DNA from: Escherichia phage saus132 | Sequence record: NC_047884.1 | Length of the DNA: 64,000 nt | Direction: 5' to 3' (one strand) | Part shown: piece after piece, positions 15,481 through 53,695 of the stretch | Numbering within the stretch: position 1 is the stretch's first letter | How the letters are laid out: each line of letters starts with the position of its first letter | The notes under the pieces: model-generated | What the model was told of the DNA's origin: nothing | What the model saw: the letters and a program-made list of their open reading frames with translations, nothing else | Database searches by the model: none | Translations under genes and position numbers: made by a program

Positions 15481-16011
15481 TTATTTATTTAATTCTTCTA
15501 ATGCTGGAAGCAACCCGCGAAAGACTTCCTTAACTGCTAGCTCTCCGTGAAGCTCTTCTCTTAATGTATTAGCTGCTTCAACAGCTAAATTTAGATCTTG
15601 GTATCTAAAGTAGCCACCATGTACTGGAGTACTTTCAGAATTTCTGGCTTGGACTCTCCATTGCTGGCGATCTTTCTTCCAGCTAACCCCTAGATATCCA
15701 GAATTAGATTGTGCGACTTTATTACGATTATTTTCCTGAGATGTGGCATCCTTTAGATTACACCATCTGTTATCTTTTCTTATATTATTTAAGTGATGAA
15801 CTAAATCTGGAATATAACCTTCCATATACAGGAAGGCTAATCTATGGGCTGCATATCTTTTTCTGTTTATCCCGATAAATATATAGCCATCTTTATCGGG
15901 ACTGCCAGCGATAGTTCCAGCTTTGGCTCTACCCTTACTGACTTTCCTTATAAAGTCTCCTGTATCGGGATTATATTCAAATAGTTCTTTCAGTAGTTCT
16001 TGTGTTATCAT
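15481..16011 (-). CDS. HNH homing endonuclease
   Basis: 176 aa; N-terminal EYNPDTG motif and AHRLAFLYMEGY..HHLNN.R.DNR HNH-like core; one of four paralogs. Confidence 0.65.
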   Translation of the reverse strand: MITQELLKELFEYNPDTGDFIRKVSKGRAKAGTIAGSPDKDGYIFIGINRKRYAAHRLAFLYMEGYIPDLVHHLNNIRKDNRWCNLKDATSQENNRNKVAQSNSGYLGVSWKKDRQQWRVQARNSESTPVHGGYFRYQDLNLAVEAANTLREELHGELAVKEVFRGLLPALEELNK

Positions 16012-16443
16012 TTACCAATCGTTAACGAAACCTGAGAACTCCGAAGCAAATACTAACTCAAATTTCTCAGCAATTTCAGGATAATCCTTACAGATCAGTT
16101 CGATGCACTTCTCAGGTTCCATACCGTCTTCTTCAGGATCACCGTAATACTTATCCCAAAGATCATCAGGAATAACTTGCTCAGCTAGATCTTGGAAGTT
16201 CACTAACTGATAGCGTGGAGTATCCTCATTAATAAAGATCTCATGCAATTCCTCAGATACTTCTCCCTTATAATCGGAAATTAGCAGAGCATTGCAAGCA
16301 AAACATTCCCACATCATCAAACGCTCAGAAATAGGGTTCGATTTGTCTTGAACATAGGACTGAAAGACTGCCTTAAAAGTAGCTTTAACTTGCTCAAACT
16401 TATCAGCTGTTGCGATTAAGAGTGCTTTATCAATCTTTTGCAT
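16012..16443 (-). CDS. hypothetical acidic protein
   Basis: 143-aa ORF with promoter and RBS upstream. Confidence 0.5.
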   Translation of the reverse strand: MQKIDKALLIATADKFEQVKATFKAVFQSYVQDKSNPISERLMMWECFACNALLISDYKGEVSEELHEIFINEDTPRYQLVNFQDLAEQVIPDDLWDKYYGDPEEDGMEPEKCIELICKDYPEIAEKFELVFASEFSGFVNDW

Positions 16444-16473
16444 TTTGATTCCTTCTCATCAATTTATAAAGTA

Positions 16474-16502
16474 ATTATACAGAAAACTAAGCATTTTAGC
16501 AA
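16474..16502 (-). promoter_or_regulatory. T5-type early promoter
   Basis: TATAAT 16474-16479 and TTGCTA 16497-16502 on minus strand, 17-bp spacer. Confidence 0.55.
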
Positions 16503-16510
16503 ATGAAGTT

Positions 16511-16537
16511 TTAAAATAAAAGGCCTAAGCCTAGGCC
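16511..16537 (-). terminator. putative intrinsic terminator
   Basis: GGCCT..AGGCC hairpin with adjacent A/T run, downstream of the 16605 gene. Confidence 0.4.
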
Positions 16538-16604
16538 CGTAAAGAAAGAGATAAGAACTACTATCCCTATTGCTACAAATATCTCACGAGCCATGCCATC
16601 AAAA

Positions 16605-17072
16605 TCAAACATAATTCCACGTTCTTCCTGTCTTTATATTACTGATAGTAGACTGATCTACTTTATAGATTTTGGCAATTTCGGTATTAGATCTGCCTTG
16701 TATAAGCAGACTTCTAATTTCCCATACTTGTTCTACTGTAAGCGCATCTGTAGTTAACCCATTAATTCTAGCATGCCTATTATTTTCCAGTATAGTAGAC
16801 CATTCTACATTAGATTTATGGTTATTCTGCTTATCCCCATCCTTGTGATTAACAGGTAGGTTTTCCCAGTTATCTGGTAAATCTAGATGGTATTGCGCGA
16901 CTAATCTATGGGCTTTTAACTTTTTAGGTTTACCCTTATTATATAGTGTATAAATAACATATCCATCTCTATCTATATGGGGAGTTAAAAGTCTACCCCG
17001 TGATATATTCTTAACTTCCCCATCTTCTGATACAGCATAGTTAGGATATTCTGTAATTTGTATCCATATCAT
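16605..17072 (-). CDS. HNH endonuclease (distinct subfamily)
   Basis: 155 aa; HKDGDKQNNHKSNVEW HNH motif and C-terminal helix-turn-helix-like tail. Confidence 0.6.
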   Translation of the reverse strand: MIWIQITEYPNYAVSEDGEVKNISRGRLLTPHIDRDGYVIYTLYNKGKPKKLKAHRLVAQYHLDLPDNWENLPVNHKDGDKQNNHKSNVEWSTILENNRHARINGLTTDALTVEQVWEIRSLLIQGRSNTEIAKIYKVDQSTISNIKTGRTWNYV

Positions 17073-17587
17073 TCCAACATCCAGCTAGTTTTATCATGAG
17101 AAGTATACTTACCACTCATAATATCTTCTAATCGTACAGGCGACTTTGCATACTCAACACAAACGTTAATGTAACGTGGATCTCCCATTAATTCAAAGTG
17201 AGTATGCCCATGCAAATTCTTTTTACCCCTTAACTCTCCTGGGTGCACTGGGGCATGAGAAAGCCAGAAGTTCTTATATTTAACTAAAGACTGCACATTA
17301 TCTACTACACCTACTAAGTCTGTAAAAGATAAGCCTTCTCGTTCCAAATCGTGGTTTCCCAGAACTAGAGTAGTCCTAACATTGCTAAATAGTTTTTCAA
17401 ACTTCTCCAGACCCTTTCTAGATACAAATGCGTCCCCTAAAATGAAAAATACAGTACGTTTATCCTTCATAGACGTAATAGTATCCATGATAAATTCGTC
17501 GTGCTCTTCCATACTAGAGAACATAGTTCGAAACTTAGGGATATTAACATGCCCTAAGTGTAGGTCGCTCCAAAAATAAACTTTCAT
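17069..17587 (-). CDS. metallophosphoesterase
   Basis: 172 aa; WSDLHLGH, GDAF, GNHD and GHTH motifs. Confidence 0.65.
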   Translation of the reverse strand: MKVYFWSDLHLGHVNIPKFRTMFSSMEEHDEFIMDTITSMKDKRTVFFILGDAFVSRKGLEKFEKLFSNVRTTLVLGNHDLEREGLSFTDLVGVVDNVQSLVKYKNFWLSHAPVHPGELRGKKNLHGHTHFELMGDPRYINVCVEYAKSPVRLEDIMSGKYTSHDKTSWMLE

Positions 17588-17955
17588 TACAGAACTTCCT
17601 CCGCATATTTATTCCAACCTTGACAATAGCTGCTAATACCACGAAGTTTGAATATTTCATCATGAATCTCGTGATGTTCTTTTGCTTCTTGATATCCTTT
17701 GTCAAGTTCTTCCTGTCGTGCTTGCTCAAAATCAACACGATTCTCTAGCATTTTCCAGACTTCTTCATACTCTGGCCAGTCATGCTCTACCACAACGGTT
17801 TTGAGATCCTTTTTTCCACGTTGTGCTCGACTATACCAGAGCTTAGTTAGTATATGTTCCAAAGTGGTAAAGTTACTCTGAGTGATATGCCCTAATTCTA
17901 GGGCTTTCTCAATATCAGACAACTTTATTACTACATAACGTTCTTCACGTTCCAT
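17587..17955 (-). CDS. hypothetical protein
   Basis: 122-aa ORF. Confidence 0.5.
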   Translation of the reverse strand: MEREERYVVIKLSDIEKALELGHITQSNFTTLEHILTKLWYSRAQRGKKDLKTVVVEHDWPEYEEVWKMLENRVDFEQARQEELDKGYQEAKEHHEIHDEIFKLRGISSYCQGWNKYAEEVL

Positions 17956-18818
17956 TATAGAATCCTCTGCTCACCACAGCTATCATTTTTATCTGTGGTA
18001 AATGTCATGATTTTACCGGCTTCATCATTAACTTGCGCAACCGTCAACTGCCCGTTGAAAACACCGCCAGTATCAAGATAAACACGGTTCTTATATAGAA
18101 TCGGGTAAGGAACACCAGTGTGGCCGTGGAATACGAAATCCACACTTTCAACTTCTGGTACTTCCACCGTCAATTCATCTTTAAAGCCTGTATAACGCTG
18201 GAAATAAGGATGTTCTGCACCTTGCTTAGATAGATGAAAACCAATTTCCTGAATTACATCACGATCCCACAAATATGGTTCAATATAATAACTAGGATGG
18301 TCATTAGGATCATTTTCACTTGCAGCGATATGATCAATAATATCATCCCAGTTAGGTGTATGTACATCGAATCCAGCATCTTTATACTGGAACGGTATTC
18401 CACCATGAACAACACCATATTTCTTGCCACGATGGAGTACGGTCATGAATACCGGCATTTTAGCAGCCATATCTTCTGCGATACCTTTAATTGTATCGGT
18501 ATCCAGATCATTCATTGCCCACATTCCACCATTATACATCCAGTTGGCATAGTCACCAGCAATCATAAACTGATCATGGTTGCCACGAACGCTACGGAAG
18601 CGTGGGTTATATAAGAATTTGGCTAGAACCTGTAAGTTCTGCGGGCCACGGTCAATTAGGTCGCCAACACAGACAACATAGTCACGCTTTTCTTTATATC
18701 CTGCTAGTTTAAGAGCATCTTCCAGCATATCATTACAGCCGTGAATATCTCCTACGAAGAACAGGTTAACATCGTCTGGTACTACTAACATTTCGTGCAG
18801 GTTAAATTCTTTTTTCAT
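17955..18818 (-). CDS. serine/threonine protein phosphatase (lambda-PPase-like)
   Basis: 287 aa; GDIHGC, GDLIDRG, GNHD and GHTG motifs. Confidence 0.7.
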   Translation of the reverse strand: MKKEFNLHEMLVVPDDVNLFFVGDIHGCNDMLEDALKLAGYKEKRDYVVCVGDLIDRGPQNLQVLAKFLYNPRFRSVRGNHDQFMIAGDYANWMYNGGMWAMNDLDTDTIKGIAEDMAAKMPVFMTVLHRGKKYGVVHGGIPFQYKDAGFDVHTPNWDDIIDHIAASENDPNDHPSYYIEPYLWDRDVIQEIGFHLSKQGAEHPYFQRYTGFKDELTVEVPEVESVDFVFHGHTGVPYPILYKNRVYLDTGGVFNGQLTVAQVNDEAGKIMTFTTDKNDSCGEQRIL

Positions 18819-18849
18819 TATCTGGTTCCTTTCTCAAGTTTATAGGTAT

Positions 18850-18878
18850 ATTATATCAAAAATTTTAGCAGAAAGCAA
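18850..18878 (-). promoter_or_regulatory. T5-type early promoter
   Basis: TATAAT 18850-18855, TTGCTT 18873-18878, 17-bp spacer. Confidence 0.55.
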
Positions 18879-18885
18879 CTGAATT

Positions 18886-19407
18886 TTAGGGCTGTTCTTC
18901 ATATTTCTCATACAAAGCAAATTCGCCAAATAATTCAAATCTCAATTCATTGGCTGCCTCCACAGCATCTTTCTTATGAATAAAAGTGCCACCATAAATA
19001 GACTTGCCATCTTTTTGTACTGTTACTTGCCATTTCCCCGTACTTTTATCCCAAGAAACATTTTTATAACCAGAAGTATTATCAGACCGTTTAGTAATAT
19101 TGGCTATATTTTGGGATTGTGTACAAGATCTGAGATTGTCATAAATATTGTTATCTCTAACCCTATCTTTGTGGTCTACCCGTTTTGGTAGGTATCCTTC
19201 CATGTATAAGATAGCCAATCTATGAGCTTGTTGGGCTTTACCATTTACTCGTATATAGATATATCCATTCTGCTTACTACCTGCTTTATTACCCGCATTT
19301 TTCTTATTCCACGCTAGGGATGCATCTGCCCTCTCTTTCCATGTGAACTCTCCAGTGAGAGGATTGTAATCAAGTATTGATTTAATATATTCTTGTGTTA
19401 ATTCCAT
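18886..19407 (-). CDS. HNH homing endonuclease
   Basis: 173 aa; paralog of the 15481 and 19750 ORFs. Confidence 0.65.
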   Translation of the reverse strand: MELTQEYIKSILDYNPLTGEFTWKERADASLAWNKKNAGNKAGSKQNGYIYIRVNGKAQQAHRLAILYMEGYLPKRVDHKDRVRDNNIYDNLRSCTQSQNIANITKRSDNTSGYKNVSWDKSTGKWQVTVQKDGKSIYGGTFIHKKDAVEAANELRFELFGEFALYEKYEEQP

Positions 19408-19466
19408 AATTATTACTTGCCTTTATATAATAAAACCCAGATCAGCTAAGATCTGGGTTGGATTTA

Positions 19467-19757
19467 TTAATCTTCTGGATTATCTTCCAGGAAGTTTTTG
19501 ATTGCATCGTGCATAGTTTCTTTACGAAGCTGACGACCAATCAGAATGTGGTTGGCTTCCACACGACCATTAGGGAGACGATCTGCTAGAACTACTACAG
19601 GAACCTGACGAACGCCAAATTTCTGCATAAGTTCTGTGTTATCAGTCTCTTTATGAACTTCTAGACTGTAGTCCTGTACTACTTTATCGAATACAGGCTC
19701 GAACATTTTGCACGGATTGCAGGTAGATCCCTTTAATAGATATACTAATTTACTCAT
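19467..19757 (-). CDS. thioredoxin-like protein
   Basis: CxxC motif STCNPCK; start set to the in-frame ATG that avoids overlap with the upstream HNH gene. Confidence 0.45.
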   Translation of the reverse strand: MSKLVYLLKGSTCNPCKMFEPVFDKVVQDYSLEVHKETDNTELMQKFGVRQVPVVVLADRLPNGRVEANHILIGRQLRKETMHDAIKNFLEDNPED

Positions 19758-20277
19758 GTTTATCTCCTTTAAATGGTTCATATAGGGCAAATTCCCCAAA
19801 TAATTCAAATCTTAACTCATTGGCAGTTTCTACAGCATCTTTGAGGTTTGTGAAGTATCCTCCCGAGTAGGATTTACCATCTTTCATAACCTGTACTTGC
19901 CATTTACATGTTTTCTTTGTCCAATATACGTTCTTATATCCAGAACTATTGTTCGAATACTTTAACGCATTAGCACCATTTTGAGAGACTGTAGCTTCTC
20001 GTAGGTTAAGCCATTTATTATCAGACCTAACTCTGTTTTCGTGGTCTACTCTTGCAGGCATATAGCCTTCCATGTAAAGAAAGGCTAATCTATGTGCCCC
20101 ATGCACTTCAGAATCAACAGTAATATTGATATAACCGTTATTTTGAGGATTGCCAGCAATTTTTCCTGCAAATTGCTTGTTAAAACCACTTCTATCTACC
20201 TTTCGGCTCTTCCATATAAATATCCCTGTATCTGGATTGTACTCTAGAAGTTCCTTCAATCTTTCTTGGGTAATCAC
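19750..20277 (-). CDS. HNH homing endonuclease
   Basis: 175 aa; same N-terminal and HNH motifs. Confidence 0.65.
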   Translation of the reverse strand: MITQERLKELLEYNPDTGIFIWKSRKVDRSGFNKQFAGKIAGNPQNNGYINITVDSEVHGAHRLAFLYMEGYMPARVDHENRVRSDNKWLNLREATVSQNGANALKYSNNSSGYKNVYWTKKTCKWQVQVMKDGKSYSGGYFTNLKDAVETANELRFELFGEFALYEPFKGDKHE

Positions 20278-20681
20278 AATTTATTAACTGCCTCTAAAAA
20301 CGCACGCATCACTTTAACAGTTGCAGTGCTAAGATCTGCGGTAGCACCTAAGCACTCAGATACAGCAGCCTGATAAGGGGCTTTTAGCCTGCCTTCCGGT
20401 ACTTGTACTTTCTTATAGGTTTTCTTTTTGACTTTATCCAGCATCGTTTCAAGAACATTGAGAGGCAACTTCTGACCTTCAATATTCACGCCAAGCTCTT
20501 CCATTAGCATGGTATTTAAGTCAATACGAGTAAGTTTCTTGCCCTTGCTAGACATACGAATTCCCGCCTTTTTCTCAAGTTTTGCACGCTCTGGTGAATC
20601 GAGGTCACGTAATGCGATGTTCAATTCATACGGAGCCATATTGTAATGGTTAGCCATCTGAGTATAGTAACGATCTGACAT
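20274..20681 (-). CDS. hypothetical protein
   Basis: 135-aa ORF; GAGGAG RBS. Confidence 0.5.
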   Translation of the reverse strand: MSDRYYTQMANHYNMAPYELNIALRDLDSPERAKLEKKAGIRMSSKGKKLTRIDLNTMLMEELGVNIEGQKLPLNVLETMLDKVKKKTYKKVQVPEGRLKAPYQAAVSECLGATADLSTATVKVMRAFLEAVNKL

Positions 20682-20714
20682 TTGTGAAACTCCTCTGATT
20701 CAATTTATACAAAT

Positions 20715-20743
20715 ATTATATAAAAATTTCAGCGGAAAGTCAA
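20715..20743 (-). promoter_or_regulatory. T5-type early promoter
   Basis: TATAAT 20715-20720, TTGACT 20738-20743. Confidence 0.5.
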
Positions 20744-20751
20744 TTACTTTT

Positions 20752-21174
20752 TTATATTAGTGTGCTTGATGTGGGGAATCTCTTCCTAACTAAGTACATA
20801 GTTATTGGATATATTGAATACATAAGTATAGGGGAGAAAAGGGTGGAATAAGCCGTGACTCCCCCAGCTAACATTAGTGGTATCAATGCTAGAGTAAGGG
20901 CCATAAGAATCATACCGAATGTGACAGCCAGGGCTACTGTGATGCAGTTTTCTAACTCCATCCAAAGCCAACAATATTTCGTATTTCTCTGGCAGTTGCA
21001 TTTGCAAACGCCGAATGTGCCCATAATTATATACTCTAGCCCATGAACGACTTTCTTTAATGTATCATTTTGGGTAACTAGTGCGACAACAGTGAGAATT
21101 ATCATTAAGATGAAAACTACTAGACTTATTTTCCATACTCCTAGTAATATCATGGTGAATAGTTCTGCAAACAT
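20752..21174 (-). CDS. membrane protein
   Basis: 140 aa, several TM-like segments. Confidence 0.45.
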   Translation of the reverse strand: MFAELFTMILLGVWKISLVVFILMIILTVVALVTQNDTLKKVVHGLEYIIMGTFGVCKCNCQRNTKYCWLWMELENCITVALAVTFGMILMALTLALIPLMLAGGVTAYSTLFSPILMYSIYPITMYLVRKRFPTSSTLI

Positions 21175-21249
21175 GGCTTTCTCCTATCATTAAGTTTTTA
21201 AAGCCCCCTTTGCTTTAAAAGGCGGGAATTACCCCGCCTTGATTTATTA

Positions 21250-21663
21250 TCAGACTAATTCTACGTGACCACCGTCGTAAGTACCACGATCGATCTCATC
21301 ATGATAATCACCAGAACTATTCCAGTCGGCACCAAAACGAAGTTTGATACCAAGTTCCTTACCGGCTTGTTCAAAAGCCTTCTTAACAGCCCAAAATGCT
21401 TCCAGATCTTTCCAATCAATCTTACCATTAATATATGGTGCAAAATCTATAGCGTCTCCAGTTACATGCTTACTTTTGCTAGGGTCTTTCAAGAATGAAG
21501 TACCATTAGCAATATTTTGGGCACTTTGTGCTACTGTACGAATACCTTGTACGATTGTGAAATCGTATGGGGATAGTTCTAAAGCCCTACGAGCTACCTT
21601 TTGTAGCTCGGGCTTAACAGTTGCTAATTGTTTTTCGCTATTTTTACCAAATTTAAAACTCAT
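21250..21663 (-). CDS. lys: endolysin (L-alanyl-D-glutamate peptidase type)
   Basis: 137 aa; matches recalled T5 endolysin; SKHVTGDAIDF and GGHVEL metal-site-like motifs. Confidence 0.65.
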   Translation of the reverse strand: MSFKFGKNSEKQLATVKPELQKVARRALELSPYDFTIVQGIRTVAQSAQNIANGTSFLKDPSKSKHVTGDAIDFAPYINGKIDWKDLEAFWAVKKAFEQAGKELGIKLRFGADWNSSGDYHDEIDRGTYDGGHVELV

Positions 21664-22316
21664 ATAGATCTACCTAATGATCTCCGTTGTGGGGAACAGA
21701 GCTTTGCTAAGTACTCGTTAAATTGTTCCGAATCAGCTGTATCTACGGGTTTATCCTTCCATGCAATACCTATGTATCCAGCATAGATATTATTTAGGTT
21801 GAAATATGGACAAGTGTAGACGTAATTAAAAGTAATGTTCTTAAACGCTGGTATATTTGACCCCGTATATTTATTTACTTTTACACTTAAATCCGCAGCG
21901 TAGTTAAAGCCTTCCAGGTGACGTCTATAAAGTTCAGACGTCTTATTTACTGCTTTATCGGCCAAGTCAGCCCTATCCAATTGCGCATTGCTTTCCCATG
22001 CAATAATGTTTGAATAATCATTTATAGCATCTGGTTTATACTTTACTACAAAAACGGCATCCGCACCAGTCTGGGAGAAAAGAACCATACTCTTTTCTCG
22101 TGCTACATTAGGAAAGTTATCTATCCTTTGGGTTTGAACATCCTGTAAAACCGAAGACGTGGAGAAAGTCTTTAAAAATGACATCACCTCGCTAGTGTTA
22201 CTTACAAACAAGAAAATAATGACAGCAACTAAGATAGTTAGCAGACGTTTTAGTAGTGAAGCTGGATCTTTCGCTTCTTGTAGCAGTATCGTTAATAGTT
22301 GTATAAACTTTTCCAC
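21660..22316 (-). CDS. holin-like membrane protein
   Basis: 218 aa with N-terminal TM segment, immediately upstream of endolysin with overlapping stop/start. Confidence 0.4.
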   Translation of the reverse strand: MEKFIQLLTILLQEAKDPASLLKRLLTILVAVIIFLFVSNTSEVMSFLKTFSTSSVLQDVQTQRIDNFPNVAREKSMVLFSQTGADAVFVVKYKPDAINDYSNIIAWESNAQLDRADLADKAVNKTSELYRRHLEGFNYAADLSVKVNKYTGSNIPAFKNITFNYVYTCPYFNLNNIYAGYIGIAWKDKPVDTADSEQFNEYLAKLCSPQRRSLGRSI

Positions 22317-22430
22317 TTGTAACCTCCTCTAACCACTACCATTATACTAATTCTAGAGTAAAATTACAATGTGTTTTTTAAGATCACTTCTGGAGCACAA
22401 TTTTTTGTCGTTGTCAAGAAGAATTTTAGG

Positions 22431-22461
22431 CAAAAGAAAAGCCAGAGTCGTTAAACTCTGG
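22431..22461 (-). terminator. putative intrinsic terminator
   Basis: 8-bp stem GCCAGAGT..ACTCTGGC with A/T run, downstream of the ClpP-like gene. Confidence 0.5.
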
Positions 22462-22472
22462 CTTAAAACTAC

Positions 22473-23072
22473 TTACACTTCTCCATGTTCTTCTGGATGC
22501 GGGGCTTGAGCTTTACTACACTGCTCTTTACGATAATTCGCCAAAATTTCAATACGCTTATTGATTTCTTTGCTGTTGAGATAGATATTCTTATTCTCTT
22601 TTACCATGTCCTCGATTTCATCGACAGAGAAGAACGGAAAGTAAATATCTAGCATCATATCTTCTACAAACTGGTTGTAGGATTCATAGGCTTTCTTGAT
22701 TTCTTGACCTTTCTCGCAGAATCCGCCAGAGAACGTATGTCCCATAAGCGTAGCATGTGGATGTACAACCCAACCGTGGCAAGATAGGAAGATTGTGCAG
22801 TAAGCAGAAGCACTAGGACCGAGCAGGTGTCCAATAACCGTTCCACGACAGTTAGCGATTAGGTTAGATAGCTGTGCAGCAGTATCAACATAACCACCAG
22901 GCCCATTAATCATCAGATTAATTTCATCATCTTCACCAGCCTGCATCAGTATCATTGATAGATCACGATACTCATCCGGTGAGCCTAACTCTTCGTCAAA
23001 GAAAAAGGTATACTCATTAGATTGGCGAACAGTGTGAAATAGGTTAGTCTTTTCTTCTTTCTTATTAGTCAT
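22473..23072 (-). CDS. ClpP-family serine peptidase
   Basis: 199 aa; INGPGGYV and GPSASAY align with ClpP INxPGG and active-site Ser region. Confidence 0.55.
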   Translation of the reverse strand: MTNKKEEKTNLFHTVRQSNEYTFFFDEELGSPDEYRDLSMILMQAGEDDEINLMINGPGGYVDTAAQLSNLIANCRGTVIGHLLGPSASAYCTIFLSCHGWVVHPHATLMGHTFSGGFCEKGQEIKKAYESYNQFVEDMMLDIYFPFFSVDEIEDMVKENKNIYLNSKEINKRIEILANYRKEQCSKAQAPHPEEHGEV

Positions 23073-23084
23073 AGTGATCCTTAA

Positions 23085-25241: not shown

Positions 25242-25393
25242 ATTTAATCCTCTTGCCTCAATCTATAAACATATTATATAATACTTGTGGCATCTGAGCA
25301 ACTGAAATTTTATTACAAAAAATAGCCCAGTCGCAAAATTGCAGGCTGGGCTTTGTCATTATTATTCTTGCTAGGAGGTGATTATCATCACTC

Positions 25394-29116: not shown

Positions 29117-29122
29117 ATAATT

Positions 29123-35065: not shown

Positions 35066-35143
35066 TGGCGGTTCCTGCTGGATTCGAACCAGCAACCCTC
35101 AACTTAACAAGATGCCGCTCTAACCAATTAGAGCTAAGGAACC
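35066..35143 (-). tRNA. tRNA-Asn (anticodon GUU), weak anticodon stem
   Basis: perfect acceptor GGTTCCT/AGGAACC; T-arm GCTGG-TTCGAAT-CCAGC; loop TTGTTAA; two stem mismatches. Confidence 0.5.
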
Positions 35144-35638
35144 ATATAAGTCAGAACTAGAGTTAATACGTTCTAGATATTTACTAAGATCCCTAGAATT
35201 TATACTAAACCACTCATGTTCTTTTAAGTCTTTGAAATATTGGTGAATTTGTTTTTCACCTTTTCGTTTGTCAAACCAAAACGACCAATGCTCTAGTTTA
35301 TAGTCCCTATAAGGACTATAAGTTTGATACTGAGCTAATCTCTCTTTTGGATTTTGACTCATACCTATTTTATACTGGTTTTTCCATGCAGGATTACTGA
35401 TACAGTATACAAAACCTTCAGAAATAGGAAGCTTATTTTCCTGTTTAAACTTTATAAAGGAAAGTGCGGCAAGTTTCCTCGAATACAGAGTATTTGTATT
35501 CTTTTTGGTATTACCACTGGTTCCTGAAAGATTTATATACTCTTCCATAAATCTTTGGATTAGTTCTGTGGTTATGTAGAAAGGCTCATTAGTAACAATG
35601 CCTTTCTCTACCAAGCTGTCAAAAACTTTTGTATGCAC
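35120..35638 (-). CDS. T5orf172/GIY-YIG-like domain protein
   Basis: 172 aa; GFVYCISNP...YKIGMSQNPKERLAQY resembles the T5orf172 core. Confidence 0.5.
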   Translation of the reverse strand: MHTKVFDSLVEKGIVTNEPFYITTELIQRFMEEYINLSGTSGNTKKNTNTLYSRKLAALSFIKFKQENKLPISEGFVYCISNPAWKNQYKIGMSQNPKERLAQYQTYSPYRDYKLEHWSFWFDKRKGEKQIHQYFKDLKEHEWFSINSRDLSKYLERINSSSDLYGSLALIG

Positions 35639-38626: not shown

Positions 38627-39028
38627 TTAGAAATTTAGCTTCATGGCAAGAAAATTTTTCAAGTTTTCTGTATTCATTTCATCTAAATCCATGAGGGAAG
38701 TAAACCCATTTAGTTTTTTAGCAAAATTCTCACCAGCAGAATCATTATCGCCTACGGCTACTACTTTAAAAGGTTGTAATTTTAGCTGCTTTAGCAATGC
38801 TTTGCTAGGGGAAGATCCTAGCATTGCTAGTGCGGGATATCCCGCGTTGTGTAGTGCCACAGCTTTAAATACAGATTCTGCAACTAATACTAGGTCTTCA
38901 TTACCTGTAAGAGTTTCTAAACCCCATAGACATTGAGTAGAAGAATGCGTAAAATATTTAGCTTCAGAAGGACATTTTCCATGACCTTTAGCTGCACTAG
39001 GGTTATATGTTTGATATCCACGTAACAT
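38627..39028 (-). CDS. Toprim-like small protein (possibly N-terminally disrupted)
   Basis: 133 aa; VVAVGDNDSAG acidic motif; short out-of-frame ATG ORF directly upstream. Confidence 0.35.
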   Translation of the reverse strand: MLRGYQTYNPSAAKGHGKCPSEAKYFTHSSTQCLWGLETLTGNEDLVLVAESVFKAVALHNAGYPALAMLGSSPSKALLKQLKLQPFKVVAVGDNDSAGENFAKKLNGFTSLMDLDEMNTENLKNFLAMKLNF

Positions 39029-44391: not shown

Positions 44392-44459
44392 ATTTCGCTT
44401 CCTCTCATTAATTTATGAAAGTATTATACAGAAATTTAAGGCTTTAAGCAATCGAATTT

Positions 44460-44909: not shown

Positions 44910-44914
44910 TTTAT

Positions 44915-45232: not shown

Positions 45233-45675
45233 AATAGCCTCGTCTCATCAATTTAAAAATATATTATACAGAAAACTAAACTAATTAGCAAATACATTTT
45301 TAAATTGAGAGACTAGTAAACCGATAAACAGCCTAGAGGCGCCACAGGCCATATCTTATGAGCCATGTACCTTTGATCTAGGGTTTGAATCATCAACGAA
45401 TACTTTGCATCTTTTAGCTTTAGAAGGTTAGAAGTTTGAGTGCTTTTAACTTTTCAGCTTTCATACTTGAGCGTTGATCTTTGAAGTTGTGTTGGTACTA
45501 CCAACGACCTTTTGTTTTTACGTGTCAGATTAAATGTCTGATGTAATAAACATAATCTCCAATAGATTATACTTTATAGTATGGTCAGCGGTCTTATTTA
45601 ACCTCGTATTTCAACCGCTGCTGCGAGGTAAGATGCTTGGGCTTTCGTCTACCGATTTACTAGTCTTTTAAATTA

Positions 45676-46314: not shown

Positions 46315-46367
46315 TATTTGCTTCCTTATATGAAGTTTGAGATTTGAATTTGTTTTAAAATGGTCTA

Positions 46368-46550
46368 TTACAGACCGATTGCCAGCAGAGTGCGCAGAAC
46401 AGTATCAGAACTGTTATCAATATTCGGATTAGCGCGATTCAGCACGTTAAAGATTTTCTGGATGCCGGACTGACGCTCAGCCATACGACGCAGACCCAGG
46501 TTACGTTTTGCTACTTTACCATTTTTACGGACGTTTTTAGATACTGGCAT
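46368..46550 (-). CDS. hypothetical small basic protein
   Basis: 60-aa ORF. Confidence 0.35.
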   Translation of the reverse strand: MPVSKNVRKNGKVAKRNLGLRRMAERQSGIQKIFNVLNRANPNIDNSSDTVLRTLLAIGL

Positions 46551-46620
46551 AATTATTTTCCTTTTGTTGTTCTCTCAAATTTATGAATATATTATACAGA
46601 ATTTTGGAGCTGAAAGCAAA

Positions 46621-47322
46621 TCAAATTTTGATTTTTTCGATCATGATGGCTACACAATAACTTTCAACTAAAGCATCGAATGCTGGATCATGCTTCACGG
46701 GATAGATTCCATAACGAATGGTGTCCATCTTTTCCATTTTAGCTTTTGCCCAGCTAGCACCTTCGGCTTCTAGATCTTTATAACTATAACCAGCTTGCAT
46801 CCACTGATTACGGAAAGATCGAACGTTACCTAAGTTCCAGAATTTCCACGGAACTATTTCTTCATGGGTTCCGGCATGGAACGTATTTGCAGAGTAGATA
46901 GTCATATCAAACTCTGGGCCATTGCCGTAATACAGAGCATTATCTCCTAGAGACAATTCCATAATGTTCTGAGCCATAGAGAAGGCAGCGTAATTAGAAC
47001 CTACATCATTAGTGCAGTGATGCTTACCATCACGGAAGGCAATCAGTTTCGGATTGCGATTAGTCAATGCTTCTACTATATGGCAAGCTGAAGTACTCAG
47101 TCTAGCTTGTTCCATCCAGAATGCAATAGTAGAGGCAGTTACCTTAGCACCCGCATTAAGCTGATCCTGAACGTCTAGAGTAACGAAAACCAGATCAGGA
47201 TCTTTATCAATTCCGTGCATCGCTACAAAAGCGAAAGAAGGCATTGCGATATGAGTAGTACCGCAATTTCCTGGAGTACCTAGAGATTCAATGTCCAGCA
47301 TACCAAAGGGCTTGAATTTCAT
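46621..47322 (-). CDS. exonuclease (DexA-like)
   Basis: 233 aa; LDIESLG and KFWNLGNVR motifs resemble T4 DexA. Confidence 0.4.
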   Translation of the reverse strand: MKFKPFGMLDIESLGTPGNCGTTHIAMPSFAFVAMHGIDKDPDLVFVTLDVQDQLNAGAKVTASTIAFWMEQARLSTSACHIVEALTNRNPKLIAFRDGKHHCTNDVGSNYAAFSMAQNIMELSLGDNALYYGNGPEFDMTIYSANTFHAGTHEEIVPWKFWNLGNVRSFRNQWMQAGYSYKDLEAEGASWAKAKMEKMDTIRYGIYPVKHDPAFDALVESYCVAIMIEKIKI

Positions 47323-47352
47323 AATTATGTCCTTTATTGTTGTAGAAAACTA

Positions 47353-47565
47353 TTAAAGAGCTGTCTCTTTAATAGACTCCCACTGTTTGGGGTCTTTCAG
47401 AGGAATTTCCTCTTCTTCAAACAGGTCTGTTCCATTTTCGTTAACATCCCAGTTTTCTTCCATGATTTCTTCTAGAAGCTCATGTTTAGAAAGACGAGTG
47501 TAGTCTCTAGCAGACTTATGAGTGCTAGCACGGTTAAAATCATTCTTTGCAACGAAGTTACGCAT
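47353..47565 (-). CDS. hypothetical acidic protein
   Basis: 70-aa ORF. Confidence 0.4.
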   Translation of the reverse strand: MRNFVAKNDFNRASTHKSARDYTRLSKHELLEEIMEENWDVNENGTDLFEEEEIPLKDPKQWESIKETAL

Positions 47566-47570
47566 AGTTT

Positions 47571-47596
47571 CTCCAAATAAGAGGGGCTTTCGCCCC
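47571..47596 (-). terminator. putative intrinsic terminator (GGGGCTTTCGCCCC hairpin)
   Basis: hairpin recurs near 47861 and 53728. Confidence 0.45.
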
Positions 47597-47606
47597 CTGA
47601 TTTAAA

Positions 47607-47822
47607 TTACTTGCCCAGTAGTTTAAGGATATTTTCCTTAATAGTTTGAGCAGATTTTTCACTCTTATTGGTTTCAGCCAGTTTCAGAGCGAGTTCTTCC
47701 TGCTGTTTCTGAATATCAGCAGCAGTTTTCTGGTCAGCTTCAATACGAGCTTGAAGTTCATCAGTAATAGTGGTAAAGGAAGCAACGATTTCAGTAACGG
47801 AACGTGGTTTCTTAGAGAACAT
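47607..47822 (-). CDS. hypothetical coiled-coil protein
   Basis: 71-aa ORF. Confidence 0.4.
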   Translation of the reverse strand: MFSKKPRSVTEIVASFTTITDELQARIEADQKTAADIQKQQEELALKLAETNKSEKSAQTIKENILKLLGK

Positions 47823-47860
47823 AAAAATATCCTTAATTAGTCAGAGAAAGAGTTAATATA

Positions 47861-47876
47861 TGGGGCTTTCGCCCCA
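47861..47876 (-). terminator. putative intrinsic terminator (GGGGCTTTCGCCCC hairpin)
   Basis: same hairpin core. Confidence 0.45.
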
Positions 47877-47883
47877 TCAATCA

Positions 47884-48399
47884 TTACTTCGCTTTACGCT
47901 TACGAGCAGGTTTAGCGGATTTACGATCAGAAGCACCAGTAAACTTAATACCGATACCATAGCACAGAGCGCGAACGTTGTCACGGCTGTACTCTACACC
48001 GAAGATATTCGGTTTAACGGAGCCAAACTGTCCACGCGATTCACGCATTACGTCAGCCATTGGCTTACGCTTCTGATTGACTGCTTTTTCGTAGTCTTTC
48101 AGAGCCATACCGTTGCGGGCGAACATTTCAGCACCGCCGTTAAAGCTCAGAGTTACCGGTACAGACTTATGACCTTCACCCTTGATGAACACAACCTGCT
48201 TAGCAGTTGCGCGAGTAGAGTTCTTGGCCTTCGGCTTCTGGCGAACCGGAGCCGGAGACTTCAGGGCAGTCTGAGCCTGAGCATCAGTAGGATGCTTACG
48301 CAGATGACGTTCCAGACGAGCCTTACGATTGGCTTCGGTCTGAGCGAAAGTTTTAACTGCCGGAGCTGCCTGAGTTTTTGCGTTTTTCTGCTTAGCCAT
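47884..48399 (-). CDS. basic Lys/Ala-rich protein (putative nucleic-acid binding), GC-rich gene
   Basis: 171 aa with K/R/A-rich termini; elevated GC. Confidence 0.5.
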   Translation of the reverse strand: MAKQKNAKTQAAPAVKTFAQTEANRKARLERHLRKHPTDAQAQTALKSPAPVRQKPKAKNSTRATAKQVVFIKGEGHKSVPVTLSFNGGAEMFARNGMALKDYEKAVNQKRKPMADVMRESRGQFGSVKPNIFGVEYSRDNVRALCYGIGIKFTGASDRKSAKPARKRKAK

Positions 48400-48482
48400 T
48401 ATTTGTTTTCCTTTTTGTTGATCAATTTATGAGATATATTATACGAAATTTTGAAGCGTTTAGCAAATGAATTTTTTAAAAA

Positions 48483-48761
48483 TTATCTGCCAATCATCTT
48501 AGCTTGTTCCTCACTGGAAACGTACTGATAACCACCCTTGTTATACGCAGGAGCAGTACACAGTTTCTTGCGCTCAATTTCTTCTTGAGCTTTGCGTTCC
48601 CTTTCGGCTAATTCTTCGTCTAGGTAAACTAGACGTTGCTCCGGAGGTGGTGGAAGCCTAGTTTCTGGCTCACCAATATTTGCCTTTCTGATCTGACGCG
48701 GAGGTTGTGCGCGTTTTCTCAAAGGTTTAAATCCTAATGAATTTGAGTTGTAAATTCGCAT
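48483..48761 (-). CDS. hypothetical protein
   Basis: 92-aa ORF. Confidence 0.4.
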   Translation of the reverse strand: MRIYNSNSLGFKPLRKRAQPPRQIRKANIGEPETRLPPPPEQRLVYLDEELAERERKAQEEIERKKLCTAPAYNKGGYQYVSSEEQAKMIGR

Positions 48762-48837
48762 AAAGCCCTCCTCACTTTCAATACGAATATTATACTAAAT
48801 TCGAGGGCTTTAAGCAAGTGAATTTTTAATTTATTTA

Positions 48838-49326
48838 TTACATCTCAGCAAGTTCTTGCTCAGTAATTACAGTATTGCATAGAGCATCAACTTCTTCGTT
48901 ACCACGAATACCTGAGTGACCTTTAACCTTAACAAAGGTTGGGTTAGTATCATGGAAATTAATATACTGTTGAGTTAGTTTAAACGCTTCTTGCCAGAGT
49001 TCTAGATTAAGAGGAGTTTCACCATCTCCTTTCTTCCATCCTTTCTTCTGCCAAGACCACATCCAGCTTTCCATACCATTTTTGCAGTAAGCAGAATCAG
49101 TGTATATAATTACTGGACGATTATCTTTCTTAGTAGACCAACGAAGAACTTCAACAATTGCAGTGAGTTCCATTTCATTGTTAGTAGTTTTAGGACTGAA
49201 GCCAGATTTAGAGCCAATACGATCATCATTATCATTATAGACAACGAATCCCCACGCACCTAAACCAGGATTGCCTTTACATGCACCATCTGTATATATG
49301 TGGAAAACCGACATTATTTGCTCCAA
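48838..49326 (-). CDS. rnh: ribonuclease H
   Basis: HIYTDGACKGNPG and YTDSAY motifs of RNase HI; real start may be the second ATG. Confidence 0.7.
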   Translation of the reverse strand: MEQIMSVFHIYTDGACKGNPGLGAWGFVVYNDNDDRIGSKSGFSPKTTNNEMELTAIVEVLRWSTKKDNRPVIIYTDSAYCKNGMESWMWSWQKKGWKKGDGETPLNLELWQEAFKLTQQYINFHDTNPTFVKVKGHSGIRGNEEVDALCNTVITEQELAEM

Positions 49327-49583
49327 TCAATTTCAAGCCAAAAACCTTCACGCTGTTCATACTTAGCTTCCACAACATAACCTAGTTTGCTAAGTTTTTG
49401 CATAACGCTATTTCTAGCGTTTTCTGAGTATTCAGTCAATCCCTGGATGTGACAGTTAAATTCTTTATCTTTGATAGCTTTGTCAATCTCTACGGCAATA
49501 AGTGATTCTAAATCAAGTACTTCCTTTTTAATACTAGCAATAGTATTTTGTTTTGCTTCTAAAGCAGATAAAAGAATAGACAT
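49314..49583 (-). CDS. hypothetical protein
   Basis: 89-aa ORF. Confidence 0.4.
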   Translation of the reverse strand: MSILLSALEAKQNTIASIKKEVLDLESLIAVEIDKAIKDKEFNCHIQGLTEYSENARNSVMQKLSKLGYVVEAKYEQREGFWLEIDWSK

Positions 49584-49585
49584 AT

Positions 49586-50164
49586 TTATTCTCCAATTAC
49601 TAAAACATCATGTTGAGAAGATACACCACACATATAATCTGCACAATGCGTAAAAGCCAGATCAATGATTTCAAATATATCATCTACATCTAAATCTGTG
49701 GCTCGACAATCCGCAATAGCTAAACCTGTACGAATACTGGAAAGTACATCTTCTCCTCCACAGCCTACACCGGCATATTCAACTTCTAGGATAGAAGCAT
49801 TAGATTGGAAAATAAAGATTCTTCCTTTGTAGAGCATAATAAATTGTCCCAGATTAGGTTCAGCATATTTTTCATTTTTCTTTTCGCCAAAATCTTTCTG
49901 GTTAAACATATCACGTAATTTAGGTACTATTTCCGTATATAAATATTTATCATCGGAAATATCTGCTAAACGTGGTGGTATAGTAAAGCTATGCTCTAGT
50001 AATTGTCCCATGTAGAAGGAACTAGTGTATCCGAAGTACAAATCATCGGAGATTTTGAATACTTTCGGATTTTTAACCAGCAGTTTCGTATAGCCATTAG
50101 AACCCATACGATCACCAGCTAAGTATACTTTATCTTTATATTTAAATGCTACTATGGCTGTCAT
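49586..50164 (-). CDS. HslV/proteasome-like Ntn-hydrolase
   Basis: N-terminal MTAIVAFKYKDKVYLAGD resembles HslV MTTIVSVRRNGHVVIAGD; GVGCGGED. Confidence 0.4.
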   Translation of the reverse strand: MTAIVAFKYKDKVYLAGDRMGSNGYTKLLVKNPKVFKISDDLYFGYTSSFYMGQLLEHSFTIPPRLADISDDKYLYTEIVPKLRDMFNQKDFGEKKNEKYAEPNLGQFIMLYKGRIFIFQSNASILEVEYAGVGCGGEDVLSSIRTGLAIADCRATDLDVDDIFEIIDLAFTHCADYMCGVSSQHDVLVIGE

Positions 50165-50262
50165 TATTAAATCCTTCTGTCAAATTAGAAGTATATTATA
50201 TTTGAATTTCACTAAGTAAGCAAATGAAATTTAAATATAATAGCCCCGAAGGGCTATTTGAA

Positions 50263-50616
50263 TTAGATTATAATCAAGATTATTAGGGCGTATGTCAGAT
50301 AATGCAGTAACTGATCAAATCCTAAAGCTATCCAAAACTTAGCATCGCTTATAGCATATTTACAGCGTTGTGCTTTCCAATAATCTATAATAAAGTGTAG
50401 AATTAATTCCATAATAGCTAAAGCTATAGACATTCCTGGTGATGTGAATAGGATTAGAATTGCAAATGTTAACCCAGCATGTACTAGCGAATGGGTTAAT
50501 AATGGAAGTTTCCACCCTATTTTATGCGTCTTTCTTAGCATATATGGTGTTTGGAGTGGATAATCGGCCATAAAATGTTTTAGAAAGAATATGACAAATA
50601 ATAGTATAATTAACAT
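50263..50616 (-). CDS. membrane protein
   Basis: 117 aa, three to four TM segments. Confidence 0.4.
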   Translation of the reverse strand: MLIILLFVIFFLKHFMADYPLQTPYMLRKTHKIGWKLPLLTHSLVHAGLTFAILILFTSPGMSIALAIMELILHFIIDYWKAQRCKYAISDAKFWIALGFDQLLHYLTYALIILIII

Positions 50617-50619
50617 ATG

Positions 50620-51474
50620 TTACACCGTAAATGGATATGCAATAGCAGGATGGTGTTCATAGCCATGAACAGTAAAATCATCCTTACTTACCCACGTTAA
50701 TACATCATCCAAAGTTCTAATATTTGGATTGATTTCTAAAGTAGGAGGTGCAAAAGGTTCACGATCGAATTGCTTGTGCTCCATCAGAACATTATACTGA
50801 TCTTCATAGATATGAAGATTGATAATCTTTTGACGAGCAATACCTGGCTTAAGACCTGTAATCTGTGCCATAATAGCTAGAAGTGCATAGCATTGTACCA
50901 TATTAAATACTTGGCCCAGCAAGAAATCATTAGACCTCTGGAAAGAGTTTAGGTATAGTGTATCACCTAAAATAGAGAATTGATGGGTATGCATACACGG
51001 ACGTAGGCATCCTTTACGAAATTCCCCAGGGTTCCAAAAAGTTAAAATTTCTCCACGATCGTCAATCCCTCTTTTCAAATTATGATAGACTTTGGCTAAC
51101 TGATCAAATACCATACCATCAGAATTAGTCCAATGACGTCCTTGAACACCATAGACTCGTCCCATATCATCCTCGCCTTTACGGAATGGATTACCTAGCC
51201 AGGCAATATTTTCATTTGCATTAGCATTCCATGTATTAACACCAATAGCGCGGAATTGTGCTGCTGAGTCGTACCCACGGAGATATCCGATCATTTCCAT
51301 TATTGCTTGTTTAGCAAATGCTTTACGAGTAGTTACTAGCGGCAGTTCTCCTGCTCCTACGTTAAAGGTAAAGTCTGCATCAATAATGGTTAGGCAACGA
51401 ACCCCTGTTCTAGGATTCGTTACCCATACACCCTCTTCAATAATACGTTTTCCAGTTTCAATATATTGGCGCAT
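50620..51474 (-). CDS. thyA: thymidylate synthase
   Basis: 284 aa; [10 protein letters not shown] and [22 protein letters not shown] align with ThyA catalytic Cys and folate-binding regions. Confidence 0.75.
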
Positions 51475-52001
51475 TAATAAGTCACCAGTTCTTGTACAAA
51501 AGATAAACTTTTGTCTGCATTATGCCCTACTGCATAGTCCATCCTAGTTGCTGTTGAATTAGTCATAGTAATATGATGGTGAAGATGTACATCAGCAGAT
51601 AATGGTGTAACTGAATTAATAGTAGATACATACGCCATATCTAGATGATTATTGACGTACATTTCAAGAAGCAGAGTTGCTCCTCCTAATACTACAGTTA
51701 CTTCTTCCTTGAGGAAATCAGGCAGACTGTACCCAATATTACTTATGCGTGTGGCTGATCCTACAGAGTTCGGTAGTGGTCTATTTGCATAAATAAATAG
51801 GTCAGAATCCCCTAGTATTCTTTTTTGCAGAGTCTCAGGGAATGCTAACCAAGTTCCTGCTCCTACAATAATATTGTCAGGTGCTAGAGAATCCAAAGTA
51901 GCATAGAAGATATCTAGTTCTTCTTTGAAAGAACCCCAAGGGAGTTTACCATTGAGGCCGAACTCCCCATTCGGCCCAGTTGCATAGATTGCTGCTATCA
52001 T
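51474..52001 (-). CDS. frd: dihydrofolate reductase
   Basis: 175 aa; N-terminal [22 protein letters not shown]; ATGA-coupled to thyA. Confidence 0.7.
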
Positions 52002-53146
52002 TAGAACATACCCTCAAATTCGTTGCCAAGATCTTTCAGAGTATCCATAGATGTTTCTGTGACTTGACCTACACGATATGCTGCGCCAATCTGAATCTCT
52101 TGCGGAGCAGGTTGTAAAGATGTAGTATCCAACCAGTTCATGATCCACGGAATAGGGTTCTTAGTAATTACAGGTAAGTGGCTTGGCCATTCTACACCAA
52201 TGTGCATAAATGCGTTACGTCCTACAAAGTAAAGGTATTCTTCAAGCAGTTCTGCGTTCAAACCAATCAGACTACGGCCTTTAAAGATAAAGTGACCCCA
52301 TTCAATCTCAGTTTTCAGAGTTTTTAGGAGTTGTGTTGGTGCTTTAGCTAATGCTTCATCTACCAGATCTTTATCAAATTGCTGAAACATAATCTGGATG
52401 ATAGCTTTAGACATTTGAGTATGTAGAGCTTCATCTTTAGCGATTAATTGCAGGTTCTTAGCAATACCTTGCAGAATATCGTTCTCTGCTAGAGCAAAGG
52501 TACATGCAAAGGATGCGTAGAACTGCATTGCTTCCAGACCGTAGATTGCAAAGTAAGCATCTAACAGCTTAGCCTGAGTTTCACGTTTAACTTCAGGGAA
52601 CTCAGTTTCTGGATAAGTATTATCACCACGATGATCACGTACTGCAAGGAAATACTGACCTAACAGATACAATTCATCAAACAGTTCAACAGAATCTGCG
52701 ATACGTGCAAATGCTTCTTGGTTTTTAGTTACAGAATCAATAAATTCTGCTGGATCAGTCAGAACGTTACGAATAATATTACTATACGCACGGCTGTGCA
52801 GATCTTCGAAGTAGCTCCACTGCTTGAGCATACCCTCCAATTCAGGACGGCTTACAAGCGGCATAATAGCTGCTTCAGGAGCACGGCTAATGAAAGAATC
52901 TGTTTGGGTCTGCCATGCTAAGTTCAGGAGAGTAATTTCCTGAATATCACGCGGAAGGTTTGGCCATTGTTTCTTATCGGCTTCCAGACTGATTTCAGTT
53001 TCAGTCCAAAATTGAGAACGTTGCAGAAGTGCTAGACGCTCAAGTTCAGGATGTGCTACACGAACGTAATCTGCGATACCAAGAGAATCGCCCAGGAAAA
53101 GGTCAGCGTTAGTATGATCCCAATTCAGGTTTAGTAAAGTAGTCAT
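52001..53146 (-). CDS. nrdB: ribonucleotide reductase small subunit
   Basis: 381 aa; di-iron helix motifs; overlapping stop/start with frd. Confidence 0.8.
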   Translation of the reverse strand: MTTLLNLNWDHTNADLFLGDSLGIADYVRVAHPELERLALLQRSQFWTETEISLEADKKQWPNLPRDIQEITLLNLAWQTQTDSFISRAPEAAIMPLVSRPELEGMLKQWSYFEDLHSRAYSNIIRNVLTDPAEFIDSVTKNQEAFARIADSVELFDELYLLGQYFLAVRDHRGDNTYPETEFPEVKRETQAKLLDAYFAIYGLEAMQFYASFACTFALAENDILQGIAKNLQLIAKDEALHTQMSKAIIQIMFQQFDKDLVDEALAKAPTQLLKTLKTEIEWGHFIFKGRSLIGLNAELLEEYLYFVGRNAFMHIGVEWPSHLPVITKNPIPWIMNWLDTTSLQPAPQEIQIGAAYRVGQVTETSMDTLKDLGNEFEGMF

Positions 53147-53212
53147 TGATTTTCCTCTTTCTCACTATTTCAGGAATATTATAGCAAATCTGGTAGCGAT
53201 TAGCAAGTAAAA

Positions 53213-53695
53213 TTATAAACTATCAAGCTCCAATAGTTTAGCATCGCGCCATTCTATAGCATCCTCTAATTCTTTAAATGTTTTAGTATGTTTTACACCT
53301 TTCCTAGCTATTTGGACTTGATAAGATCCACTTGCTTTTTGGTGTATATTTTTAATACCTAACTTATTGTCCTTATGTGCTCCAACGTTCTTTCCATTAC
53401 TAAATCTGTTAGAGGCTAGTAAATTAATTGCTCTATTATCATGACGTATTCTATTATCATGATCTACTTCTTTTGGGATGTACCCATGCGTAATATAGAA
53501 TGCTAGGATATGTGCGTAGTATTTTGTACCTCTTACCTGCATTACTATGTATCCTGAGCATTTTTCCAAAGAGCCTGCCTCTTTGCCTGCAAACTTAGTA
53601 TTAAATGATTTATCTTCTCTAGGTTTGTGGGTAAAGATTCCGGTTTCTGGATTATAGTCAAATAACTCAGCTATTTCTTTGTATTTTTCTTCCAT
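53213..53695 (-). CDS. HNH homing endonuclease between nrdA and nrdB
   Basis: 160 aa; EYNPETG and AHILAFYITHGY..DHDNRIRHDNR motifs. Confidence 0.6.
   Translation of the reverse strand: MEEKYKEIAELFDYNPETGIFTHKPREDKSFNTKFAGKEAGSLEKCSGYIVMQVRGTKYYAHILAFYITHGYIPKEVDHDNRIRHDNRAINLLASNRFSNGKNVGAHKDNKLGIKNIHQKASGSYQVQIARKGVKHTKTFKELEDAIEWRDAKLLELDSL

Follow-up and report, generated by a model that had tools for sequence, protein, structure and literature searches.

Within the 64,000 nucleotides of Escherichia phage saus132 analyzed here (NC_047884.1; hereinafter the window, whose numbering is used throughout), five small open reading frames (ORFs) on the minus strand encode predicted HNH nucleases, which we label H1-H5, the slots that they occupy being named site 1-5 accordingly. 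All five lie where a preliminary description made from the sequence had placed them, including the copy between nrdA and nrdB. We propose, with a probability of about 0.87, that these genes represent the I-HmuI-like HNH_3 group of homing endonuclease genes (HEGs), that they are free-standing and lodged in the early region of an Epseptimavirus, and that they spread by homing. The genes and the flanks of the fifth slot, with the predicted domains of the products, are as follows:

15481-16011, minus strand: H1, 176 aa, free-standing HEG with an HNH_3 domain (E 5e-11) and an AP2-like region, PHROG 99
16605-17072, minus strand: H2, 155 aa, I-HmuI-like HEG with NUMOD4, HNH_3 and helix-turn-helix (HTH) modules, PHROG 59
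18886-19407, minus strand: H3, 173 aa, HEG with HNH_3 and AP2 domains, PHROG 99
19750-20277, minus strand: H4, 175 aa, GTG start, HEG with an HNH_3 domain and an AP2-like region, PHROG 99
52001-53146, minus strand: nrdB, downstream flank of the H5 slot
53213-53695, minus strand: H5, 160 aa, HEG between nrdA and nrdB with an HNH_3 domain (E 5e-9) and an AP2-like region, PHROG 99
53751-56144, minus strand: nrdA, upstream flank of the H5 slot

The annotation used for comparison is GenBank MF431736.1 (the T5-like phage chee130_1; Demerecviridae, Epseptimavirus), whose bases 1-64000 match the window at 100% identity and with the same coordinates. In this record H1 and H2 are left unannotated, H4 and H5 are N-terminally shortened, and three of the five genes already carry the label 'homing endonuclease'. 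The N-terminal homology among the paralogs and the annotation of phage EPS7 support the longer ORFs as the probable forms of H4 and H5. The paper describing the source isolates, six of them 2-5 nucleotides apart, mentions HNH or homing endonucleases solely in its gene tables (PMC5816814). tblastn searches with all five proteins recovered no further copies in the window, NCBIfam gave zero matches for H1-H5, and PADLOC returned for them only generic 'homing endonuclease' models with no defence-system membership. The G+C content of the five genes is 33.7-37.5%, against 39.4% for the window.

H1, H3, H4 and H5 share 40-60% pairwise identity (BLASTP E 1e-19 to 1e-69), far beyond chance, and thus form the set of four paralogs that had been recognized from the sequence. 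The fifth ORF, H2, had been set apart as a different HNH type, and this is borne out by its marginal similarity to the four (BLASTP E 8e-5), its Pfam architecture of NUMOD4, HNH_3 and HTH_38, and its match to I-HmuI (PDB 1U3E; E 9e-14). All five exceed the Pfam gathering threshold of 24.8 bits for HNH_3 (PF13392, His-Me finger group 2), with 42.4 bits for H1, 25.8 for H2, 42.6 for H3, 42.0 for H4 and 36.2 for H5; both PHROG 99 and PHROG 59 are labelled 'HNH endonuclease', and the five ORFs extend over the full length typical of the family. The paralog family is a large one: we collected 249 homologs at E <= 1e-10, mostly with a precomputed HNH_3+AP2 architecture, and tblastn with H5 matches 1,672 of 50,697 phage records from many genera (E <= 1e-8).

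The two motifs that had been used to define the paralogs are indeed present, with their exact form needing correction. The N-terminal one reads [DE]YNPxTG. As for the second, two of the copies have AHRLAFLYMEGY, a third AHRLAILYMEGY and the fourth AHILAFYITHGY. This second motif, beginning AHRLAF, had been taken for the HNH core; it is instead the helix that opens the HNH_3 domain, and the catalytic motif is the next segment, VDH...N...N. In a five-way alignment the catalytic His and two Asn residues (His75, Asn87 and Asn96 of I-HmuI; H73, N85 and N94 in H1 numbering) are invariant. The predicted structure of H3, the one of the five that was modelled (predicted local distance difference test score, pLDDT, 97.2; predicted TM-score, pTM, 0.87), shows an I-HmuI-like beta-beta-alpha-metal HNH domain followed by a C-terminal AP2 DNA-binding domain. 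Going by this model, the four paralogs are predicted to combine an N-terminal beta-hairpin, bearing the [DE]YNPxTG motif, with a beta-beta-alpha-metal nuclease and a C-terminal AP2 domain.

This is the organization of the HNH-AP2 HEGs of phages, cyanobacteria and protists, for which PMC10448857 and PMC5714182 cite Magnani et al. 2004; these likewise have an N-terminal HNH_3 nuclease and a C-terminal AP2 domain and are free-standing in phages, and the four paralogs do not differ from them in substance. I-HmuI of Bacillus phage SPO1 has its gene inside a group I intron, whereas H1-H5 are free-standing, and it carries C-terminal helical DNA-binding modules in place of the AP2 domain of the four paralogs; H2 differs from it in having Asn at the position of Asp74.

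Comparison with relatives lacking the insertions, a check that the preliminary description had suggested, reveals discrete cassettes of about 520-550 bp. None of the five sites is occupied in Salmonella phage Stitch, and in EPS7 the nrdA|nrdB copy is the only one. Relative to Stitch, the H1 insert spans 15495-16011 (517 bp, its flanks being contiguous in Stitch), the H3 insert 18879-19426 (548 bp), the H4 insert 19764-20279 (516 bp, with a 5-bp junction overlap) and the H5 insert 53215-53746 (532 bp, in place of 35 bp of Stitch). The block containing H2 is larger, extending over 970 bp (16613-17582), and comprises H2 together with a non-homologous allele of the adjacent phosphoesterase gene. 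The five HEG cassettes account for five of the 13 segments of the window that are specific relative to Stitch. The accompanying features of the slots are:

17069-17587, minus strand: phosphoesterase (Metallophos) allele accompanying H2; 16613-17582 has no DNA match in Stitch or EPS7
53178-53206, minus strand: early promoter of nrdB, TTGCTA-N17-TATAAT, a 10/12 match with TG, intact 6 nt past the H5 stop
53728-53745, minus strand: terminator-like hairpin after nrdA, part of the H5 cassette, found by a hairpin scan (reported on the plus strand; an inverted repeat)

The junctions are closely fitted to the neighboring genes. The ATG of H1 abuts the TAA of the upstream gene at 16012-16443 (TAA|ATG), the start of H2 overlaps the stop of the upstream phosphoesterase gene (ATGA), and the GTG start of H4 overlaps the upstream stop (GTGA), while the last codons and stop of H4 overlap the thioredoxin start. 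H4 is inserted in the final codons of the upstream gene, for which it provides a new stop, and it takes over the former 'HE*' end, which runs into the thioredoxin start. H3 lies after the T-run of the thioredoxin terminator and before the -35 box of the next early promoter. At site 5, the hairpin after nrdA reads GGAGATCTTCGGGTCTCC in empty alleles and GGGGCGAAAGCCCC in H5-type alleles, the nrdB promoter is conserved in both empty and occupied alleles, and there is no obvious promoter or ribosome-binding site ahead of H5. The stops of H1, H3 and H5 all fall 5-7 nt upstream of a TTGCT(A/T)-N17-TATAAT early promoter (15476-15440, 18879-18845 and 53206-53178, minus strand), and AATTCAGTTGCTTT occurs both in the empty allele of site 1 and in the stretch following H3. 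This placement could reflect either a target preference or the sole insertion point that is tolerated; by visual inspection the slots have in common AT-richness and a promoter -35 box, which is too little to claim a shared target sequence.

Downstream of H2, the interval 16444-16604 (minus strand), read by eye, holds a hydrophobic ORF of about 27 aa before the next promoter. The equivalent interval of empty alleles has a comparable but different small hydrophobic ORF, and Stitch annotates a 33-aa gene there.

A survey of the slots in 27-28 T5-like genomes from IMG/VR gave the following occupancies:

Site 1: 1 of 28 genomes
Site 2: 1 of 26 genomes
Site 3: 0 of 28 genomes
Site 4 (g8C|trx): 9 of 28 genomes, with at least five lineages and one copy split
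Site 5 (nrdA|nrdB): 12 of 27 genomes, with at least four lineages

Among GenBank phage records, DNA of H1-H5 is present in 51, 38, 5, 35 and 42, respectively, whereas DNA of the flanking regions matches 464 and 524 records, which serve as denominators; each HEG lineage is thus found in 1-11% of T5-like records. The 38 records with H2 are all at least 95% identical. Every site is therefore polymorphic, which is clearly at odds with a fixed arrangement in which each relative would have every copy at the same place, the outcome that had been named as speaking against mobility.

Genes of the same family also occur at three or more further positions in relatives. HNH genes lie directly downstream of g2C in about 11 of 28 (the 15163/15162 boundary of the window), about 2 kb downstream of nrdB, past thyA, in about 7 of 27 (50164-50620), and directly upstream of nrdA in the S124-like phage L031 (56144-56208). 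All three slots are empty in the window.

Sequence identity points to recent movement of several of these cassettes. Identity to the S124-like phage L063 is 98.1% for H1 and 98.7-99.2% for H2 with the phosphoesterase gene, but only 85.6% for the 432-bp gene separating the two HEGs and 68-86% for the genes around them. In Yersinia phage phiR2-01, H5 is 98.3% identical (the spacers are also about 98%), against 80-87% for nrdA and nrdB. Fisher tests of HEG against background identity give p = 8e-14 for H1, 6e-30 for H2 and 3e-20 for H5. Because they form 98-99% identical islands in 68-87% identical backgrounds, H1, H2 and H5 are best viewed as having recently moved horizontally. Together with the presence/absence polymorphism, these islands support the earlier characterization of the genes as selfish and mobile. 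The accompanying idea that they mark recombination hot spots also fits: mosaic boundaries match HEG edges at sites 1 and 2, where, precisely at H1, identity to Stitch falls from 98% to 82% and, precisely at H2, homology to it ends. The phosphoesterase alleles of relatives fall into two classes, with about 92% and about 53% amino-acid identity, and in L026 and L031 a 72-77% identical variant of H5 is accompanied by a more divergent 3' end of nrdA.

The slots have moreover been occupied by different lineages. Occupants of the same slot are 27-55% identical, as distant from each other as paralogs of different slots, and they do not group by slot, some site-4 occupants being nearest to H1. The nrdA|nrdB spacer has two different insertion points, the second of which, after the -10 box, is used by the T5-type occupants, which supply the ribosome-binding site of nrdB; at site 4 the 3' junctions differ among occupants. 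Since different lineages and junctions are found in the same slot, the insertions would be independent, and the pattern as a whole points to repeated invasions along with slot switching. One site-4 HEG (L049:2477-3004; IMGVR_UViG_2974597248) is split into ORFs of 56 and 113 aa, both about 51-55% identical to H1, and is apparently a decaying copy.

The gap between nrdA and nrdB had been called a classic position for a homing endonuclease, and the placement of mobE in phage T4 backs this (PMC2790892). The T4 order is nrdA - mobE - nrdB.1 - nrdB, and mobE shares with H5 both this position and the character of a free-standing HNH gene of small size. Promoterless, mobE encodes a product that nicks the nrdB of T2 and homes (PMC2790892); the reliance of mobE on upstream transcription is matched by the lack of an obvious promoter or ribosome-binding site before H5. 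Homology between the two was rejected (BLASTP E 0.92; PF01844 for MobE against PF13392 for H5). Because MobE is unrelated to H5, the likeness appears to be one of position rather than descent, i.e. convergent. Nicking and homing have been demonstrated for MobE, whereas the activity of H5 is predicted.

The F-Tfl endonucleases of T5 belong to the same phage group as H1-H5 and have the same general role, with 'F-TflVI' and 'P-TflX' as further names in annotations. F-TflI, II and IV are reported to have been characterized as HNH endonucleases by Akulenko et al. in 2004. The characterized F-Tfl enzymes are encoded in the tRNA gene cluster (PMC2330249), F-TflIV has been classed among the PF01844-type HNH proteins (PMC5714182), and according to PMC10644984 it is mainly through HEGs of this kind that T5-like genomes differ from each other. 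EPS7 annotates the counterpart of H5 as 'H-N-H endonuclease F-TfIVI'. The name does not imply orthology, because the nrdA|nrdB occupant of L027, presumed to be T5, shares just 33% identity with H5, and the OSYSP gene annotated as F-TflVI is 41% identical and located elsewhere. With that 33% identity and another insertion point in the spacer of L027, H5 was ruled out as an ortholog of the T5 'F-TflVI'.

HEG-bounded islands of high identity in otherwise diverged phages, and a clustering of HEGs near ribonucleotide reductase (RNR) genes, have been described by Barth, Dunham and Seed 2023 (PMC10448857). The islands in that study exceed 10 kb, whereas the tracts here are about 0.5-1 kb, covering either just the cassette or one gene in addition.

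The mechanism we propose would begin with mixed infection by a HEG-carrying phage and a related HEG-less one, in which the enzyme would nick or cut the allele without the HEG, in the slot or close to it. Repair by recombination with the HEG-carrying genome would then copy the cassette of about 0.5 kb into the recipient, sometimes along with adjacent DNA. The cassettes seem to be located where they would do the least harm, being either start/stop-coupled to the upstream gene (H1, H2, H4) or placed in gaps between a terminator and an early promoter (H3, H5). Given this coupling or position, expression would probably depend on upstream transcription or read-through.

Several observations weigh against this proposal or narrow it. 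H1 (VHH) has His and H2 (VNH) has Asn in place of the Asp that H3, H4 and H5 have at the position of Asp74 of I-HmuI; as this metal-binding Asp before the catalytic His is at least 90% conserved in the family alignment (64 of the 249 collected homologs), activity of H1 and H2 is less certain. The AP2 matches of H3 and H4 (27.5 and 16.5 bits) are below the Pfam gathering threshold of 33.3 bits, as is AP2 in H1 and H5, and the structural prediction covers H3 alone. H3 is confined to the chee130_1 group, apart from an 82% identical protein encoded on a 113.6-kb Logan contig, where the thioredoxin|phosphatase slot is likewise the one occupied and the junction sequences are the same; given this limitation to one clade plus one relative, any recent mobility of H3 would be hypothetical. 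The sole close carrier of H4 examined has equally similar flanks. In L007 and L030, H5 and its flanks are equally diverged, so that part of the distribution of H5 would be vertical. Finally, for H1-H5 the catalytic activity, target sites, choice between a nick and a double-strand break, and biased inheritance are inferred only.

A different, distinctly improbable explanation is that the genes are kept because they benefit the phage, either as weapons that cut co-infecting T5-like genomes (partial exclusion) or by reshuffling and amplifying useful neighbors, with homing as a by-product. Mechanistically this would be the same act as homing, and a competitive benefit is compatible with the data. 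The HEGs adjoin nucleotide-metabolism genes, H2 brought a different phosphoesterase allele along, and SegB, a HEG of the T4 family, is reported to promote amplification of anti-defence loci (PMC13096335). Yet the presence of the individual lineages in just 1-11% of relatives and the lack of all five in Stitch argue against a strong general benefit.

Still less probable is that the five are relics, inherited vertically from an ancestor that carried all of them, lost by deletion in most lineages, and now decaying or neutral passengers that do not home. Deletion alone can yield presence/absence patterns, and the split copy of L049, the flank-like divergence of H5 in L007 and L030, and the non-canonical residues at the metal-binding Asp position of H1 and H2 would all suit such a history. 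However, the highly similar HEG islands in diverged backgrounds call for horizontal transfer in recent times, both H1 and H2 exceed 98% identity where the gene separating them reaches 85.6%, the different lineages and junctions within single slots amount to independent insertions, and none of the five ORFs is shortened relative to the family. The notion that they serve housekeeping, nicking T5-type virion DNA at specific sites, breaking down host DNA or aiding packaging as terminase-associated HNH proteins do elsewhere, finds some footing in the nickase activity of I-HmuI-type enzymes, the match of H2 to I-HmuI and the specific nicks of T5-like genomes (PMC10644984), but it is highly implausible given that the nicks are common to T5 and BF23 while the genes are absent from most T5-like genomes (Stitch lacks all five and EPS7 four of five), that they lie in the early region and not beside packaging genes, and that the PADLOC matches are only to generic 'homing endonuclease' models.

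Returning to the proposal of free-standing HEGs that spread by homing, an elaboration that we regard as unlikely but somewhat less so than the above alternatives is that some slots, especially nrdA|nrdB and g8C|trx, are arenas of conflict between HEGs. Here at least 4-5 HNH-AP2 lineages would replace each other and jump between slots, and might target alleles occupied by rivals; the placement of H1, H3 and H5 could then reflect recognition of promoter-adjacent sequence by the AP2 domain.

As a phenomenon, HEGs are ordinary for T5-like phages, and those described here are already known in kind, the HNH-AP2 and I-HmuI-like families being established; hence, they carry little weight as a discovery. 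Their value lies partly in the annotation, as the deposited record lacks two HEGs and a T5orf172-type nuclease gene (see below) and has two further HEGs in truncated form. The cassettes and their co-converted neighbors also explain several of the mosaic breakpoints of T5-like phages, which is relevant to typing and engineering these phages for biocontrol. The empty, variously occupied and decayed alleles at nrdA|nrdB and g8C|trx furnish a natural series for studying HEG turnover and target specificity.

When the remaining segments of the window that are specific relative to Stitch were scanned for HEGs, no HNH gene was found; they encode Toprim, proteasome-like, DUF3307 and unknown proteins and one ORF of the T5orf172 type. 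This last ORF (35120-35638, minus strand) is unannotated, has a GTG start and codes for 172 aa with MUG113/T5orf172 domains of the GIY-YIG clan (E 9e-16 and 1e-11). Flanked by tRNA-Asn and tRNA-Cys, the ORF shares about 24 nt with the annotated tRNA-Asn, and the segment is missing from Stitch and partly from EPS7. To judge from its domains, it is probably a sixth gene of the homing-endonuclease type, from a different family and in the tRNA cluster. T5-like phages are rich in T5orf172 HEGs (PMC10448857), and a second likely example beside another RNR gene is the 'hypothetical' ORF at 59519-60205 (plus strand), right after the anaerobic ribonucleotide reductase gene; its product has a DUF4379 treble-clef zinc finger, CapR homology and T5orf172/MUG113 domains, and belongs to PHROG 681, labelled 'endonuclease'.

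The other window-specific genes include a 133-aa Toprim ORF at 38627-39028 (minus strand; a PHROG 849 'DNA primase' fragment), the segment of which is missing from both Stitch and EPS7; in the BF23 paper (PMC10644984) a TOPRIM ORF of T5 that was formerly called a primase is noted as having later been identified as 'Rad', an inhibitor. Specific relative to Stitch are also a proteasome-subunit-like protein at 49586-50164 (minus strand; PF00227, E 1e-9) and, at 50263-50616 (minus strand), an unannotated 117-aa DUF3307 membrane protein.

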